A stretch of 64,000 nt of DNA from positions 5,107 through 69,106 of the forward strand of contig JBAZTH010000003.1 in the NCBI GenBank assembly GCA_041661965.1. Reading direction: 5' to 3'. Within the stretch, counting starts at the first letter, position 1, and each line of letters begins with the position of its first letter. Origin of the DNA: Candidatus Margulisiibacteriota bacterium. GTDB taxonomy: Bacteria > Margulisbacteria > WOR-1 > O2-12-FULL-45-9 > XYB2-FULL-48-7. A program made the position numbers and the translations under genes. The notes under the pieces are model-generated. The model saw only the letters and a list, made by a program, of their open reading frames with translations. It was not told the DNA's origin and made no database searches. This document shows, one piece after another, positions 26,906 to 38,098 of the stretch.

Positions 26906-28270
26906 TTAGTTTCCCCGCAGCATTTTATCGAGTTCATCCGGCGAGGCGTTGGTCACCTCAAAAAGCAGTCGTCCCAAACCTTCATTTTTGATCTCTTCGC
27001 GATTATTCCAGACCCAGGCGCCGAAATTGAGGTAATGGCGGCTCTTTCCCATGTATTCCATTAGCTCGATAAAAGAAGAGACTTTCGATCGTGTTCCATC
27101 GGCAGATTCTTTTTTAAGGAGAGTTTGAATTTCCGGATTACCGATAGATTCGAACATTCTGGCTAGCCTCTCCCGGCCGTGCCGTTCAAAGACCCCTTTG
27201 ATCCGGTCATAATTTTGGACCAACGCATTCTTTAGCCAATCGGGATAAGGGTCCTGCTTTTCAACTTCCATATTTTGTTCCACAAATTGGTCCCGTTCAT
27301 AATCGGTGTAGCCGCCTTCTTCGGTGACCGTGTACGAGCGATAAAGTTTAACCCCCATCTCTTCCAGCCGGGCGACCCGCCGGTCATATTCCTCCTGGAT
27401 AATGGCGCCGTTTTCATCGTACAAGTGCGGCGTCGACAGGGGGAGGGGGAGAGTTTCGCTTGGGAGCTCTTCAACCAAACGAATGCCCATGTTCCCTTCC
27501 CGGACATTGGGGCGGGAGGCGAATTGCATGTCCGGAACGTTAAGATAGCAAGTTATATTTAAATCTGGCTTGTCCATGTAAGGGGTTACTGTCCAGGTGA
27601 CTCGGTCGCCAGTCAGCTGTTCTCTGGCCTGTTGCCATTCCTCTTCAGTTTGAACCAGGAACTTCCTGCCGGTCAGCTCGCTTAGCCGTTTGGCAAATTC
27701 CATGGCGTCGTCCAAACTCACATAAGTGACGGTTTTCCCTTCATTGGCCGGATCAGAAAGGAATTCCCTCAATTTGTCAGCGTTGTGTCCTTTGATTTTA
27801 TAACCGGCCATTACCTGCTTAAACAGAGTAACCGCGACTTCCCCCCTCATGATTTTTCTTTTGCCTGAAAGGGTGAGCATTTCGGGAAGTTCCAAGGCAG
27901 TCTGTTGGACGGCGGCTGGGAACATCTTTTGGATCCCGGCCAGGTTTTCTTTGTCGCCCAGAATGAATAAATGCTCCTCATTTGTCAGAAAGGCCGACAG
28001 CTCCAGGGAAACGAAGATCGTTTCGGCGGTTTCGCCGCCGGCCGCCCTTGTTTCGAGCGAAGGCTGCATGCCCAGCAGCCTGATTTTGGCGATCCGGTCG
28101 AGATGGATGCCATTGAGTTCGATCCTCTGTCGTTGGCAGAGCGCGGTGAGGCAGGGGCCAAGCCGCTCCTTGCCGATCGCAAAAGAAGAGATATCGACAA
28201 CTCCCCGCAAAGCCGGCAGGGCTCTTTGGGACAAGTGAATTATTGATTTATTGGTTACCGGCGTGATCAT
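26906..28270 (-). CDS. Paralogue A (454 aa) of a five-member family: conserved N-terminal domain, degenerate FGE-sulfatase (SUMF1-like) motif region, unique C-terminus
   Basis: N-terminus MITPVTNKSIIHLSQRALPALRGVVDISSFAIGKERLGPCL shared with paralogues B-E. Central LPEM...GEVAVTLFKQVMAGY and TVTYVSLDDAMEFAKRLSELTGRKF..TEEEW resemble the FGE/SUMF1 signature (KYEVT..F..F...GY ; VSWxDAxAYCxWLSxxTGKxYRLPTEAEWE). Confidence 0.6.
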   Translation of the reverse strand: MITPVTNKSIIHLSQRALPALRGVVDISSFAIGKERLGPCLTALCQRQRIELNGIHLDRIAKIRLLGMQPSLETRAAGGETAETIFVSLELSAFLTNEEHLFILGDKENLAGIQKMFPAAVQQTALELPEMLTLSGKRKIMRGEVAVTLFKQVMAGYKIKGHNADKLREFLSDPANEGKTVTYVSLDDAMEFAKRLSELTGRKFLVQTEEEWQQAREQLTGDRVTWTVTPYMDKPDLNITCYLNVPDMQFASRPNVREGNMGIRLVEELPSETLPLPLSTPHLYDENGAIIQEEYDRRVARLEEMGVKLYRSYTVTEEGGYTDYERDQFVEQNMEVEKQDPYPDWLKNALVQNYDRIKGVFERHGRERLARMFESIGNPEIQTLLKKESADGTRSKVSSFIELMEYMGKSRHYLNFGAWVWNNREEIKNEGLGRLLFEVTNASPDELDKMLRGN

Positions 28271-28273
28271 AGT

Positions 28274-36500: not shown

Positions 36501-37122
36501 TCAGGAGGTAAACGGTGTAGCCCTGTTTGAAGGCGTCTTGGACCGTTTCGACGATCTGTTTCAACTGCGGTTCGAGGACCGAGCGGTCGAGATCTTTCAT
36601 CCCCAGGCTGAAGAAGTAGGTTTTTTCCTCATCCTTCCACTCCTGGGCCAGCCCTTCGACGATCGCCGTTTTTCCGACGCCGGTGTTGCCGATCAGAATA
36701 GCGTTGCTGCCGCCCTTCAGCCGTTTGGAAAGCTCCGCCATTTCGTCGCTTCGTTCAAAGACCGGATCGAGATCGCCGGCGCGGGCTTCGCTGGTAATGT
36801 TGCGCAGGCCAAGTTCTTCCAGCTTTTCGATCGGGGTTTTCGGCTCGCCGTCACCCGCGCCGTTGACGCCGTTGGTTCCGTTAACCGCGCCGTTGCTTTC
36901 GAGGCCGGCCGGATTTCTCGCGATCAGGCTTAATTCATCGCGGATCAGGGTCCCGGCGGGCGTCAGGCTTAGCAGGTTGTGAGTCGGTGGGGCAATTTCT
37001 TTTGTTATTCGTCCTCCGGGTAACAAGCTCGGGTGGTTTACAAACGTGCTGCGAGCGGCGATGGTCAGTTCCCTGATCAGGCGGACGCTTTGTCTGATCG
37101 GCAGTCTAGTTAGAGCTTCCAT
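33547..37122 (-). CDS. Divergent Clp/Hsp100 (ClpA/ClpB)-like double-AAA+ ATPase, 1191 aa, with a non-canonical about 130-aa N-terminal region and an about 450-aa C-terminal extension
   Basis: NBD1 Walker A ILIGNTGVGKTA and Walker B YLLMDELH; NBD2 Walker A FTGPTGTGKTELA, Walker B VLLLDEADKA, and the GARPL sensor-2 motif characteristic of ClpA/B D2. No recognisable Clp_N domain; C-terminal region is unique. Confidence 0.75.
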   Translation of the reverse strand: MEALTRLPIRQSVRLIRELTIAARSTFVNHPSLLPGGRITKEIAPPTHNLLSLTPAGTLIRDELSLIARNPAGLESNGAVNGTNGVNGAGDGEPKTPIEKLEELGLRNITSEARAGDLDPVFERSDEMAELSKRLKGGSNAILIGNTGVGKTAIVEGLAQEWKDEEKTYFFSLGMKDLDRSVLEPQLKQIVETVQDAFKQGYTVYLLMDELHLMEQAGVLELLKEPLARPGFQVVGATTTGEFYRYFNNDATKRRFGDPINIESLTGDKLRRLVRNIIPVILEKLRGVEKIEVPPASRQAAIDLSPLIVNRFPPDATIALIKEAIGSKRSQLGDLRRIVTETPKKLADDINDLIEFAADPATRPQLEGIWKSVIGIVAAYLESELLVEKVVRKLAESGCLTITEDDIRAQASKMAGLDLRKMDELDIQQLSQIEGRIRTRFIGQDQAVGKVAGAVKRYKTGRRKKQSPIAAFMFTGPTGTGKTELAHTLAWLLFGNAQKVMTIDMTQCEGKAGKTLLFGPDPGFVGFDKTKGMLPELFKRKENRHGVLLLDEADKADPDVYESLLVMLDQGYVQNKETGEKYSLEDVVVIMTSNQGEAQMLKPEQIRELAAGKAPEEAKKIADGLTKANREIAANSFKSQKDEYGRDKYPPAFLRRLDIVPFDYLNEADLSAIADIQLKNFVAQVETDQKLEVVLGGDETEYQAVKQYIMERGIDLAGGARPLKQALEEHLDNTFSAWLVNNMPNGEHIIKISVRDGELRFEETTDKSERGRQMDIAQIHGRKGIILRKIRELVAAGAEVDAAMIGGLLSPPKGAEKVELWLEENPWPEDETARAEALAKVKQALTTEDRQALEAELPELLKSGNPGIVALAQAIADELQQAKEAAQFTNKPDWEITLSPGDKAKVDPKIKSAQAGLKELLTARGLPETEQGAVLRALSTLIYAAKDRQEKLTGDERDKPIIVRWRISRANDIQIVVYNADREAREEGPRLADFRKKYIDGTSRSLAIKAGKTGTSFVFSIIANREIKIELSPPTKPLAEALAPILNPSDNIIKNNGAVLLIQDLAASLLASSQPPRMMAPLDKLIGEFFVSANPQIISFNDLLTNNNLDPEYKAEIIKTLLELPEAPKFPPISLSLTRSADGIDVAFVLPGTVDIAKIQQDYANMARGAKVELIGRSEGENKILTIRIPD

Positions 37123-38098
37123 CGGTTCTCCCGGCGGTTTTTTTAACTAATTGGATTTTGCCCAGTACCTGTTGAGCGGGGGCGGCGCTAGCTTTTTTGG
37201 GCAGCTGTAATTTGCCCGGTCCGGGGTCGAGGTAGTCCCGGCGAAAGCTATCGAAAAGTTGGGCGAGGGTGGTGCCGTTGTTCGACCGGGAAGCGGTCAG
37301 CAGTTCTCTGACCAGATTTTCCTGCCCCGCGGCGTCGATCACTCCCTCTTTCATGACTTCGGCCACGACCTGCCGCATGGCGACTTCAAAATCAAGCTCG
37401 CGGTCCATGATCTTTTCGACAATCGTTTCCGCCAGGATATGCATCGCGTGGTCTTCGCCAGTCCCTTCGATCTCGCCGGGGATCGACTGACCGAGGGTCT
37501 CTTCCGCTTTGCCGTTGAAGTCGTATAAGATTTCTCTGGTCGTTTCCCTCAAGAGGTCGGCGGCCCGCTGTTGGATGTTGTCAACACCAGAGAGTTTGCT
37601 TTCCAGCTGGTCCATCCAGGCGCGCAGGCGGGCTTTTTTCTGGGTGTCCTGGATCTTCGGTTCCAGCGTCTGCCAGACATCTTTTTCGATCAGCTGAAGG
37701 ACCGCTTCCTGCTGTTGGTTGAAGGCCGACCGGTCGAAACGGGCGGTGGCTTCCAGTTGGCTGATTTCCATAAATGCTTTGTTGAGGGCGTGGACCAGGG
37801 CTGGTTCGATCTCGCCGATCAGCTCCGAAAATTCATCGAGCTTGGTCAGTTCTTTTAGAATTCTTTGGCGGGCGGCGCCGGCGACATCGATTCTTAAGTT
37901 CTTTTCCCAGCAGATTCCGGCGACAAAAGGGAGCTTGGCCGAAGTTATGGCGGAAAGGGCGACGGCGGCGACAACCGGGAGCAGGGAAACGTTCAAAGCC
38001 AGCGTTTCGGCGGCACGCTGATGCCTTAAGACAAAGTTTTTTAATGTCGTTTCGGCCCGGAAGCAATAATAATGAACATAGTTGGTCGCCCTGATCAT
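37106..38098 (-). CDS. Hypothetical 330-aa protein, first gene of the ATPase/paralogue operon (17-nt overlap with the ATPase start)
   Basis: ORF with matching codon usage; predicted helical; short hydrophobic stretch near the N-terminus; no recognisable domain. Confidence 0.5.
   Translation of the reverse strand: MIRATNYVHYYCFRAETTLKNFVLRHQRAAETLALNVSLLPVVAAVALSAITSAKLPFVAGICWEKNLRIDVAGAARQRILKELTKLDEFSELIGEIEPALVHALNKAFMEISQLEATARFDRSAFNQQQEAVLQLIEKDVWQTLEPKIQDTQKKARLRAWMDQLESKLSGVDNIQQRAADLLRETTREILYDFNGKAEETLGQSIPGEIEGTGEDHAMHILAETIVEKIMDRELDFEVAMRQVVAEVMKEGVIDAAGQENLVRELLTASRSNNGTTLAQLFDSFRRDYLDPGPGKLQLPKKASAAPAQQVLGKIQLVKKTAGRTDGSSN

Follow-up and report, generated by a model that had tools for sequence, protein, structure and literature searches.

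A Candidatus Margulisiibacteriota cassette, apparently undescribed, coupling a divergent Hsp100-type ATPase to an array of variable paralogues with a common N-terminal domain

In class-I Hsp100/Clp systems, such as ClpC–MecA/McsB, ClpA–ClpS and ClpV–VipB, partner proteins attach to the motor and deliver substrates to it; ClpS engages its motor through an N-terminal extension that is disordered. Cdc48/p97, a double-ring AAA+ motor driven mainly by D2, works with many cofactors whose small docking domain is shared and whose target-binding modules vary. NTPase-centred conflict systems join a constant NTPase core to highly variable modules (FGS, WD40, superstructure-forming repeats); where FGS occurs, the core is MoxR-vWA, iSTAND or a GAP1 GTPase (Kaur, Burroughs, Iyer, Aravind 2020; PMC7159879), and under the EAD principle a small shared domain links separately encoded components (PMC8195603). 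We report here a seven-gene cassette from an uncultured Candidatus Margulisiibacteriota bacterium, located in an analysed stretch of 64,000 nucleotides (the window). It encodes a 330-aa protein (up330), a 1191-aa ATPase and five paralogues, E to A, with a common N-terminal domain (N-dom), and all seven ORFs are present on the minus strand:

37106-38098, minus strand: up330 (330 aa), ORF, first gene of the cassette
33547-37122, minus strand: ATPase (1191 aa), ORF
36808-37122, minus strand: ATPase residues 1-105, where a Gly/Asn-rich linker and a short, conserved N-terminal stretch stand in for Clp_N (orthologue alignment)
35923-36807, minus strand: ATPase D1 ring, residues ~106-400 (phmmer alignment to ClpC 3j3s)
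34843-35922, minus strand: ATPase D2 ring and D2-small, residues ~401-760 (Pfam AAA_2 and ClpB_D2-small; alignments)
33547-34842, minus strand: ATPase C-terminal extension, residues 761-1191 (~430 aa), orphan (orthologue alignment)
32216-33547, minus strand: paralogue E (443 aa), with N-dom at 33203-33547, mini-FGE/CLec at ~32708-33175 and a helical C-terminal module common to C
31353-32222, minus strand: paralogue D (289 aa), with N-dom at 31863-32222, then an orphan C-terminal module
30007-31344, minus strand: paralogue C (445 aa), with N-dom at 31006-31344, then mini-FGE/CLec and the helical module common to E
28274-30010, minus strand: paralogue B (578 aa), with N-dom at 29675-30010, then a degenerate mini-FGE and an orphan beta-rich module (~120 aa) present twice
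26906-28270, minus strand: paralogue A (454 aa), with N-dom at 27926-28270, then a mini-FGE and an orphan helical C-terminal module
29949-30248: recent gene-conversion tract spanning the 3' end of C and the beginning of B, with 84% identity to 32161-32460 across 300 nt and 98% in the core (repeat search; windowed identity of C against E)

Read from the DNA in the order up330 to A, the junctions are a 17-nt overlap, a 1-nt overlap (TAATG), a 7-nt overlap, an 8-nt gap, a 4-nt overlap (ATGA) and a 3-nt gap. Cassette genes overlap or lie at most 8 nt apart, which amounts to tight translational coupling, and the packed layout listed in a first-pass annotation agrees with both the ORF coordinates and the junctions. 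That annotation also made conserved linkage of ATPase and paralogues a test of its proposal fixed in advance, and an ATPase gene followed by an N-dom array is indeed conserved in seven contigs (the window, L001, L002, L005, L006, L011/L008 and L012); where the contig allows, the arrays comprise 3 to 11 N-dom genes each. The phyletic range is narrow, all named sources being Candidatus Margulisiibacteriota. In each of the five contigs that reach upstream of the ATPase (the window, L001, L002, L005 and L012), up330 is its direct upstream neighbour, and the linkage of N-dom array and up330 persists down to 52% ATPase identity while all flanks differ. The assembly that contains L012 also has an orphan N-dom gene, with housekeeping genes around it. 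Extreme E-values and the recurrence of the arrangement in further contigs exclude a chance origin; the cassette is real and apparently undescribed. The reading we prefer, at a probability of roughly 0.4, is that of a ClpP-independent unfoldase with interchangeable target-recognition adaptors, probably serving in biological conflict.

The ATPase contains Pfam AAA_2 (E = 2.9e-29) and ClpB_D2-small (2.4e-8) and no Pfam Clp_N domain, and its closest PDB match is ClpC (E = 5.5e-67, residues 87-764). Its topology is class-I Hsp100, with Walker A/B, Arg fingers and sensor-2 intact across both rings. D1 carries Walker A GNTGVGKT, Walker B LLMDELH, Arg fingers KRRF, a helical insert of ~70 aa at the M-domain position and weak Pfam AAA_22 and AAA_16 matches, and D2 carries Walker A GPTGTGKT, Walker B LLLDEADKA, pore loop GFVGF and sensor-2 GARPL. 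In alignments, the D1 pore-loop segment (AGTKYR in ClpC) is deleted together with its tyrosine in 7/7 orthologues and the G[FY]VGF pore loop of D2 is retained in every one of them, D2 being the sole ring with an aromatic pore loop. The [ILV]G[FL] ClpP-docking tripeptide is absent from the same alignments, and a coiled-coil insertion of ~50 aa is present in D2 of the L002, L006 and L011 ATPases. The C-terminal extension has no Pfam or PDB match and is conserved among orthologues in patches (SERGRQMD, GRKG.ILR, PPKG..K.ELW.EE and YAAKDRQEK). The protein thus has the two AAA+ modules, the GARPL motif, the missing Clp_N and the long unique C-terminus first attributed to it, and it is not an ordinary ClpA/B/C/V, with NCBIfam scores 4-5 times below the ClpA/B/V equivalog cut-offs. 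The D1 deletion may mean that it is a remodeller or scaffold instead of a threading unfoldase.

The first gene, up330, has no Pfam, NCBIfam, PADLOC, PHROG or PDB match; it forms 8 clusters among 5.8 billion proteins, every named one from Margulisiibacteriota, and its motifs GICWEK and SIPGEIEG.G.D.AMH.LAE.IV.KIMD are invariant. Residues 33-63 form a hydrophobic segment (Kyte-Doolittle 19-residue maximum 2.24 at residue 33; just 1.78 in the L002 orthologue) that may, judging from sequence, be a membrane anchor, as a borderline case.

The defining element of the system is N-dom, a domain of ~115 aa in all five paralogues (58-71% identical among them), just as had been claimed. It forms 32 clusters among 1.84 billion representatives, and an N-terminal copy is always present. 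An AF2 model of good confidence (pLDDT 82, pTM 0.76), a compact monomer with residues 1-7 disordered, has no significant match in the PDB, and N-dom is thus, as modelled, an alpha/beta domain of previously unseen fold. The disordered tail ahead of it is conserved (M-[VIT]-x-P-[VI]). Two sub-types exist, also in tandem within one protein, and type 2 is seen only in loci whose ATPase has the D2 coiled-coil insertion. Second, internal copies occur in P0134, P0136, P0138 and L008 genes, and L005 and L008 encode proteins of 180 aa and 130 aa, respectively, that contain N-dom only; both observations are more in line with a folded docking domain than with an export signal. No N-dom copy is detectable in the ATPase or in up330, and the EAD-like tethering through a shared short domain that was originally envisaged is therefore not homotypic here.

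Behind this constant domain the paralogues diverge. Pfam FGE-sulfatase scores are 32.5 bits for C and 22.1 bits for E, weak for A and nil for B, and only C clears the gathering cut-off of 23.3 bits; B shares 45-51% identity with A, C and E in the FGE-like region, and all four match one PHROG family, which together uphold the assignment of this region to four of the five paralogues. Alignment to full FGE domains reveals a ~100-residue deletion that removes the catalytic-cysteine region, in keeping with the non-catalytic role suggested for it. In the AF2 model of E, the FGE region has pLDDT 70-86 and the C-terminal module ~70-80, with weak Foldseek matches to the FGE-fold proteins ToxD and PvdO. 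Paralogue D, described as keeping only N-dom, does lack an FGE-like region but carries an unrelated C-terminal module, also present in L001 p4 and L005 p6. The beta module of B, which has no Pfam or PDB match, recurs in L001, L002, L005, L007, L012 and P0146, and the helical module of A is common to L001 p5, L006 p4 and P0132. Other relatives fuse N-dom to WD40 (highly self-similar repeats), a PQQ propeller, LRR_4 (1e-12), full FGE domains without the Cys pair, or orphan beta and helical modules. The FGE-like module is thus not the hallmark it was first taken for, but one among many exchangeable C-terminal modules, which on sequence grounds are binding domains rather than enzymes or toxins. 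Neither signal peptides nor TM segments were found in the paralogues.

The arrays also change quickly. The partner of the conversion tract, 32161-32460, takes in the 3' end of E as well as the beginning of D, and the 3' tracts of C and E are 98% and then 88% identical in nucleotides against 40-67% mid-gene, which confirms the near-identical C-terminal domain reported for this pair. Between L001 and L005 the cores share 86.6% identity, yet the arrays are rearranged and the upstream flanks unrelated. Module shuffling, gene conversion and varying genomic context suggest fast-changing targets, and this speaks for a part in conflict (against phages or invaders) more than in housekeeping. No toxin, nuclease, other effector, immunity or known defence-partner genes were found, and the neighbours of the cassettes are housekeeping or DNA repair genes. 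Eukaryote-like ankyrin, RCC1 and Ser/Thr-kinase proteins are encoded in the same window. As regards a conflict/immunity role as against an adaptor/substrate role, the evidence gives a leaning and not a firm choice.

In the mechanism we propose, the motor would be a dedicated ClpP-independent Hsp100-type unfoldase or remodeller, with the co-translated up330 most likely its working partner and perhaps its anchor to the membrane. Each adaptor would consist of a constant docking module, N-dom with its disordered tail, and a variable ligand-binding module, here the shortened non-catalytic FGE/C-type-lectin domain and the orphan helical or beta modules. N-dom would dock on the ATPase, candidate sites being the flexibly linked N-terminal segment, the C-terminal extension and the D2 insertion; the C-terminal module would then capture a target protein or other ligand, which the D2 ring would thread or remodel.

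The paralogues could instead be cargo, with N-dom and its tail as a recognition or translocation tag by which the ATPase unfolds them into an export route with up330 as membrane partner, a logic akin to that of HSP101 in the PTEX translocon of Plasmodium or of contractile injection systems whose cargo is loaded with the help of AAA+ proteins. Binding proteins of LRR, WD40, HEAT and lectin type would then be delivered to a eukaryotic host or competitor. We consider this unlikely, although a threading or export tag would equally look like the conserved, disordered extreme N-terminus of the N-dom proteins, variable-gene arrays just downstream of a motor resemble effector arrays, and the hydrophobic segment of up330 and the eukaryote-like proteins of the window suit it. 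Furthermore, the phylum includes symbionts of eukaryotes, among them one living intracellularly in Trichoplax (bioRxiv 10.1101/568287). However, none of the seven contigs has secretion-system, channel or injection-system genes, no toxin/immunity pairs were found, the paralogues lack export signals of the kinds sought above, and internal N-dom copies and N-dom-only proteins would be odd for a tag.

It is still more doubtful that N-dom forms the oligomerisation core of a hetero-oligomeric scaffold displaying the binding modules, which the D2-driven ATPase dismantles or recycles much as in ClpV/T6SS sheath, Vps4/ESCRT-III or NSF/SNAREs. One core domain across many paralogues, in two sub-types that also stand in tandem, would fit, as would a lost D1 pore loop, seen in remodellers relying on one ring. 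The restriction of type-2 N-dom to loci with the D2 insertion (L002, L006, L011) would fit too, but phylogeny confounds it, the window, L001 and L005 forming one clade; self-association is hypothetical for a domain modelled as a compact monomer, and fast module shuffling is explained no better than by adaptors. Least probable is a divergent ClpC/ClpB-like housekeeping disaggregase sharing its operon with an unrelated expanded family: homology of the core to ClpC and ClpB is clear and the flanking genes are housekeeping, but the array and up330 stay linked to distant ATPases among ever-different flanks, equivalog scores are far too low, Clp_N, the D1 pore loop and the ClpP loop are missing, and the genes are translationally coupled.

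The adaptor reading can be set against known systems as follows. First of all, the cassette shares with class-I Hsp100/Clp and their adaptors the two AAA+ rings per chain, AAA_2 D2 with D2-small, GARPL and the idea of motor-docking partners, with ClpC the best PDB relative. It differs in lacking Clp_N (where adaptors usually dock), the D1 pore-loop tyrosine and the ClpP tripeptide, in its ~430-aa orphan extension and scores far below every NCBIfam equivalog cut-off, and in candidate adaptors that come as arrays of 3-11 operon-encoded paralogues whose new-fold N-dom is unrelated to MecA, ClpS and McsB. Second, ATPase residues 400-599 (D2) match the PADLOC candidate defence ATPases Dodola (DolB, 1e-22) and PDC-M37B (8e-20), but the match spans only the generic AAA_2 region, there is no DolA or other such partner, and none of the remaining six cassette proteins has a PADLOC match. 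Third, the mini-FGE resembles non-catalytic FGE/C-type-lectin-fold domains (PvdO; the DGR variable proteins Mtd and TvpA) in being homologous to PF03781 without the catalytic cysteine pair, and its variability peaks between W.WT and IRLVE, the position of the C-terminal subdomain in full FGE domains; it is, on the other hand, ~100 residues shorter than the Pfam model (matching positions 23-141 of 255) and fused to N-dom. No TR/VR-like repeat was found in 13 kb scanned, and Pfam detects no reverse-transcriptase domain in the cassette proteins or ~20 neighbouring window ORFs. Fourth, a constant NTPase core, variable modules, several variable paralogues per genome and a small shared domain are common to the cassette and the NTPase-centred conflict systems, from which it differs in its Hsp100 core, in a link that is not homotypic, N-dom being absent from the NTPase, in the lack of a peptidase, TIR or nuclease effector in the cassette, and in a host phylum that is not a classic multicellular bacterium. 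Finally, Cdc48/p97 and its UBX/PUB/SHP cofactor families differ in that the cassette ATPase is an Hsp100 and not a classical AAA protein, and the cassette is bacterial, operon-encoded and rapidly shuffled; in the proposed mode of working they would, by analogy, be the closest match.

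An ORF scan returned the seven minus-strand genes of the first-pass annotation at identical coordinates.

Genes of the cassette, from up330 to paralogue A (ORF scan)
37106-38098, minus strand, up330, an orphan protein of 330 aa
33547-37122, minus strand, Hsp100-like ATPase of 1191 aa
32216-33547, minus strand, paralogue E, 443 aa
31353-32222, minus strand, paralogue D, 289 aa
30007-31344, minus strand, paralogue C, 445 aa
28274-30010, minus strand, paralogue B, 578 aa
26906-28270, minus strand, paralogue A, 454 aa

Read from the DNA in this order, the first three junctions overlap by 17 nt, 1 nt (TAATG) and 7 nt; an 8-nt gap, a 4-nt overlap (ATGA) and a 3-nt gap follow. 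With every junction between −17 and +8 nt, the genes are arranged as in a single translationally coupled operon, as had been proposed. A simple scan for promoters and terminators was uninformative, its counts being close to shuffle expectation. Divergent from the cassette lies a 250-aa orphan gene (38302-39054, plus strand), which has no Pfam or PHROG match and is not kept beside the cassette at other loci. Directly downstream is an NHEJ cluster (22313-26364, minus strand) encoding a LigD phosphoesterase and ligase, a separate LigD primase-polymerase and two tandem Ku paralogues. The window also holds two tRNA genes and a stand-alone 16S rRNA gene (44252-45745, plus strand), with no 23S/5S genes or spacer tRNAs adjoining. 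The gene for tRNA-Ile(GAT) (26456-26532, plus strand), normally found within the rRNA spacer, is 18 kb from the 16S gene, with 374 nt separating it from paralogue A's end; integration at this tRNA was rejected, as a repeat of its 3' end is absent elsewhere in the window. Beside the tRNA-Gln gene, a segment of 40% GC (19738-22000; window about 51%) contains an ankyrin-repeat gene (20178-21083) that is eukaryote-like and may have been horizontally acquired. An RCC1-repeat protein (9357-10724, minus strand) adjoins a 1056-aa ORF without any Pfam match (6118-9288, minus strand), and there are two eukaryote-type Ser/Thr protein kinases (46551-47870 and 53221-54504, both minus strand). Taken with the ankyrin and RCC1 proteins, the kinases hint at a lifestyle that is complex or host-associated.

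Judged by its sequence, the ATPase is a member of the Hsp100 superfamily and not an orthologue of any named Clp. Its residues 87-764 align with ClpC at E = 5.5e-67 (phmmer against the PDB). In this alignment the first AAA+ ring, D1, has the Walker A motif GNTGVGKT, the Walker B motif LLMDELH and the KRRF arginines, and the second, D2, has GPTGTGKT and LLLDEADKA in the same roles, followed by sensor-1 and a GARPL sensor-2. Pfam finds AAA_2 (E = 2.9e-29) and ClpB_D2-small (E = 2.4e-8), with only weak generic P-loop matches in D1. Two AAA+ modules per chain, with an AAA_2-type D2 bearing ClpB_D2-small and GARPL, are the mark of Hsp100/Clp class I, and both are present. Several hallmarks of the named families are missing. 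First of all, no Clp_N domain (PF02861) appears in the Pfam scan, in agreement with the first-pass annotation, nor in the Pfam lists of four ATPase-family proteins from the databases (P0001-P0004), and most of the Clp-type matches listed do have it; its position is taken by a short conserved segment and a Gly/Asn-rich linker. Second, the tyrosine pore loop of D1 (K-Y-R-G) is lost through a six-residue deletion exactly at ClpC AGTKYR in 7/7 orthologues, and the D2 pore loop, GFVGF, retains its aromatic residue. Third, the [ILV]-G-[FL] tripeptide for ClpP docking was not found in the D2 surface loop, where the region of the ClpC VGF loop reads LKPEQIRELAAGKAPEEAKK. All seven orthologues recovered have in common these three losses and the retained D2 aromatic residue. 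Residues 761-1191 form the unique C-terminal stretch that had been put at about 450 residues; they have no Pfam or PDB match and are patchily conserved among orthologues. The ATPase fails the NCBIfam equivalog cut-offs for ClpB, ClpA, TssH/ClpV, ClpG and ClpK, with scores four to ten times under (ClpB 268.8 against 1232, ClpV 242.7 against 885, ClpA 224.4 against 993). Among 5.8 billion clustered proteins there are only three other close relatives, at 77%, 63% and 53% identity, after which the next matches are ordinary ClpC proteins, about 30% identical over 55% of the length. Failing the equivalog cut-offs and lacking Clp_N, the D1 pore loop and the ClpP loop, the protein is not an ordinary ClpB, ClpC or ClpV.

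The domain shared by the five paralogues at their N-termini, here N-dom, spans about 115 aa at 58-71% identity, close to the 110 aa first estimated. HMMER, run exhaustively over 1.84 billion cluster representatives, found it in 32 proteins, against one from a word-index profile search. The best-matching copy is N-terminal in nearly all 32, the exception being P0134, which has a second sub-type there instead. This type 2 N-dom, first met in the related locus L002, is only about 22% identical; it is homologous by cross-profile matches and also has the N-terminal motif M-V-x-P-V...I..L.Q. Both types occur within one array in loci L006 and L008, and also in tandem inside single proteins. A confident AlphaFold model of N-dom from a 24-sequence alignment (pLDDT 82, pTM 0.76) predicts the order beta-beta-alpha-beta-alpha3-beta-beta-alpha, with residues 1-7 disordered. 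A fold search of BFVD with N-dom gave no match and the PHROG matches of the cassette are generic (an ATP-dependent protease and an FGE-type 'kinase' family); phage origin was rejected on these grounds. Effector-associated domains are known to link the components of conflict systems (PMC8195603), and a tether through the short shared domain had been envisaged here. A homotypic form of it did not survive: the N-dom profile (hmmsearch --max) gives E > 0.1 for every ATPase and up330, and an EAD-type homotypic adaptor was rejected, since no copy of N-dom is detectable in either. The up330 protein falls into eight clusters in the 5.8-billion-protein database, of which all named ones are Margulisiibacteriota. 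Neither it, nor the C-terminal extension of the ATPase, nor the beta module of paralogue B has a match in profile searches of PDB and Pfam.

In paralogues A, B, C and E, N-dom is followed by a shortened FGE-sulfatase/C-type-lectin domain of about 150 aa. Its Pfam PF03781 scores are 32.5 bits in C (gathering score 23.3), 22.1 in E, 16.0 in A and none in B, over model positions 23-141 of 255. Two findings speak for homology to FGE: the region aligns with the full FGE domains of other family members, which occur on the N-dom proteins P0142, P0147 and P0149 (Pfam 1e-45 to 1e-67), and all four paralogues match PHROG 18508 here. Compared with these full domains, the short form lacks the first beta-hairpin and a subdomain of about 50 residues holding the GNVWEW element and the catalytic-cysteine region. 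The catalytic Cys pair is thus absent from A, B, C and E, as annotated, by deletion of its subdomain, and even the full domains lack it, the site having no Cys in P0142 and P0149 and a single Cys in P0147; we take the position of this copper-binding pair in the C-terminal subdomain from human FGE. In an AF2 model of full-length paralogue E (5-sequence alignment) the FGE-like region reaches pLDDT 70-86, N-dom is unreliable (pLDDT < 50), and Foldseek matches in the PDB are weak, comprising the FGE-fold proteins ToxD and PvdO as well as helical ones.

The C-terminal modules do differ from one another as first described, with a helical module common to C and E; B ends in two copies of an orphan beta-rich module and A in another orphan module. 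Paralogue D was said to keep N-dom only; it does lack the FGE-like region, but it has a further orphan C-terminal module. The last 270 nt or so of C and E are 98% and then 88% identical, against 40-67% mid-gene, which indicates a recent gene conversion. Across the family, the partners of N-dom are as follows.

Partner modules of N-dom
Mini-FGE and full FGE domains (Pfam, alignment)
WD40 propellers with highly self-similar repeats
PQQ-type propeller with a C-terminal helical HEAT-like tail (the tail seen by eye, undetected by Pfam)
LRR (Pfam)
Orphan beta module
Several orphan helical modules

Some members are essentially N-dom alone. An enzymatic toxin, an immunity gene or a secretion component was seen at none of the loci.

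The linkage of ATPase and paralogues, on which the first-pass annotation had staked its proposal, holds outside the window: an ATPase gene followed by an N-dom array lies on six further contigs, namely L001 (a Margulisiibacteriota MAG), L002, L005, L006, L011/L008 (counted as one locus) and L012. ATPase identity across the linked loci goes down to 52%. The arrays comprise 3-11 mosaic paralogues, with 11 consecutive N-dom genes at L011/L008. The up330 gene is directly 5' of the ATPase gene in L001, L002, L005 and L012; L006 and L011 start inside the ATPase gene, and a short contig, L004, carries up330 and then the 5' part of an ATPase gene (P0003, 63% identical). The flanking genes, which are for housekeeping or DNA repair, differ at every locus (for example, L002 has valS, recA and rny, L012 uvrB, L001 lpxB, and the window Ku/LigD and tRNA-Ile). 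L001 and L005 are 86.6% identical over a 5-kb core; on the upstream side, homology extends only about 75 nt beyond up330, and the two arrays are rearranged relative to each other. In one assembly, an orphan N-dom gene lies on another contig amid trmD, rplS, lepB and rnhB. In D2 of the L002, L006, L011 and L012 ATPases, about 50 aa of coiled coil are inserted where ClpA and ClpC have their ClpP-docking loop (window ATPase residues 620-625 approximately, nt ~35250); the clade of the window, L001 and L005 lacks this insertion. Type 2 N-dom is seen only at loci with this insertion, an association confounded by phylogeny, and the insertion site may mark a docking site.

The arrays have further content of their own. 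Scattered through the arrays of L001 (7776-8855) and L005 (16130-17158 and 18218-19291) are proteins without N-dom, about 350 aa long, that carry an HExxH motif (HERAH or HERRH); they have no Pfam or PHROG match and no homologue in the window, and may be metallopeptidase accessories. At L001 6290-7690 and 8837-10612 the deposited gene calls are too short: the open frames reach further upstream than the annotated starts and encode complete N-dom copies there, and hence every L001 array gene other than the HExxH one has N-dom. Beyond the longest array, L008 14643-21716, come a Thr/Ser-rich putative lipoprotein and, encoded on the other strand, SLH and Big_5 surface proteins, an arrangement without counterpart at the remaining loci.

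The cassette is real, conserved and, literature searches having found no description of it, apparently undescribed; named sources limit it to one candidate phylum. To our knowledge, this phylum is sister to Cyanobacteria and has no cultured representative. As far as sequence can tell, the parts are a constant motor and a library of proteins that each pair a small constant domain with a binding domain that varies, and the cassette would be classed either with AAA+ unfoldases and their adaptors or with NTPase-centred diversifying systems. We give a probability of roughly 0.4 to the reading in which the N-dom proteins are adaptors, or target receptors, of the ATPase. N-dom, perhaps with its conserved tail, would dock onto the ATPase or up330, the variable module would catch a target, and the D2 ring would thread or remodel what has been caught. 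A different and rather doubtful reading makes the N-dom proteins cargo or effectors, with tail and domain acting as a translocation tag; the N-terminus is indeed conserved and disordered, eukaryote-like ankyrin, RCC1 and kinase genes share the window, and the phylum includes known symbionts (bioRxiv 10.1101/568287). However, internal second copies of N-dom, proteins that are N-dom only, partner modules exclusively of binding type and the absence of secretion genes all favour a docking domain over an export tag. That N-dom instead builds an assembly which the ATPase dismantles seems improbable to us. A coincidental operon of an ordinary chaperone and an unrelated expanded family is very improbable, since the linkage persists to 52% ATPase identity though the flanks always differ.

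A role in conflict is suggested by module shuffling and gene conversion, by array content that varies between close relatives and by the changing genomic context. The cassette could be a bacterial immune or targeting machine of a new class, in which an Hsp100 unfoldase is programmed by a rapidly shuffling, operon-encoded library of receptors (LRR, WD40, propeller or lectin on N-dom, itself of new fold), so that many foreign proteins would be recognised and, by forced unfolding, destroyed or dismantled. It would resemble a split NLR-like sensor array whose output is unfolding rather than a nuclease, pore or NADase. We consider this proposal, and the likeness with it, unlikely but conceivable.

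Known systems of several kinds were considered and set aside. A polymorphic toxin/immunity array would share the constant N-terminal domain, but no toxin domain was detected and immunity genes would not fit into junctions of −17 to +8 nt. For a ClpV or secretion-coupled ATPase, secretion-apparatus genes are missing from the flanks in all seven contigs. Known PADLOC defence systems match generically and in the D2 region of the ATPase only (PDC-M37B, DolB), the other six proteins having no match. A DGR mechanism was rejected for the region covered: 26000-39000 has no TR/VR-type repeat, and none of the scanned window ORFs encodes an RT domain.

From the cassette, three orphan families (up330, the C-terminal extension of the ATPase and N-dom) can be defined, besides several orphan modules. 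Should the adaptor reading be true, Hsp100 machines of bacteria can be redirected by modular receptors from large families that evolve fast, a strategy familiar from the Cdc48 cofactors and F-box proteins of eukaryotes; we know of no such targeting for Clp ATPases. Targeted unfolding without a protease partner or toxin would then be a candidate output of a prokaryotic conflict system, and a compact docking domain that joins arbitrary binders to an unfoldase could serve as a tool for targeted unfolding. In evolutionary style, the closest systems are the NTPase-centred conflict systems, whose MoxR-vWA, STAND or GTPase cores are surrounded by diversifying modules such as FGS and WD40 (Kaur et al. 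2020, PMC7159879). The first-pass annotation had invoked this logic, and it holds in part: a constant NTPase is accompanied by 3-11 mosaic paralogues, whose modules include FGS, WD40, LRR and propellers, but the core is an Hsp100, and vWA, STAND and effector domains (peptidase, TIR, nuclease, pore-former) are absent from all cassette proteins. The cores in that work (MoxR-vWA, iSTAND/STAND, GAP1 or DO GTPases) include no Clp-type one (PMC7159879). By descent, on the other hand, the closest system is ClpC with its MecA-type adaptors, and in the working proposed here the closest analogue would be Cdc48/p97 with its UBX-type cofactor families.
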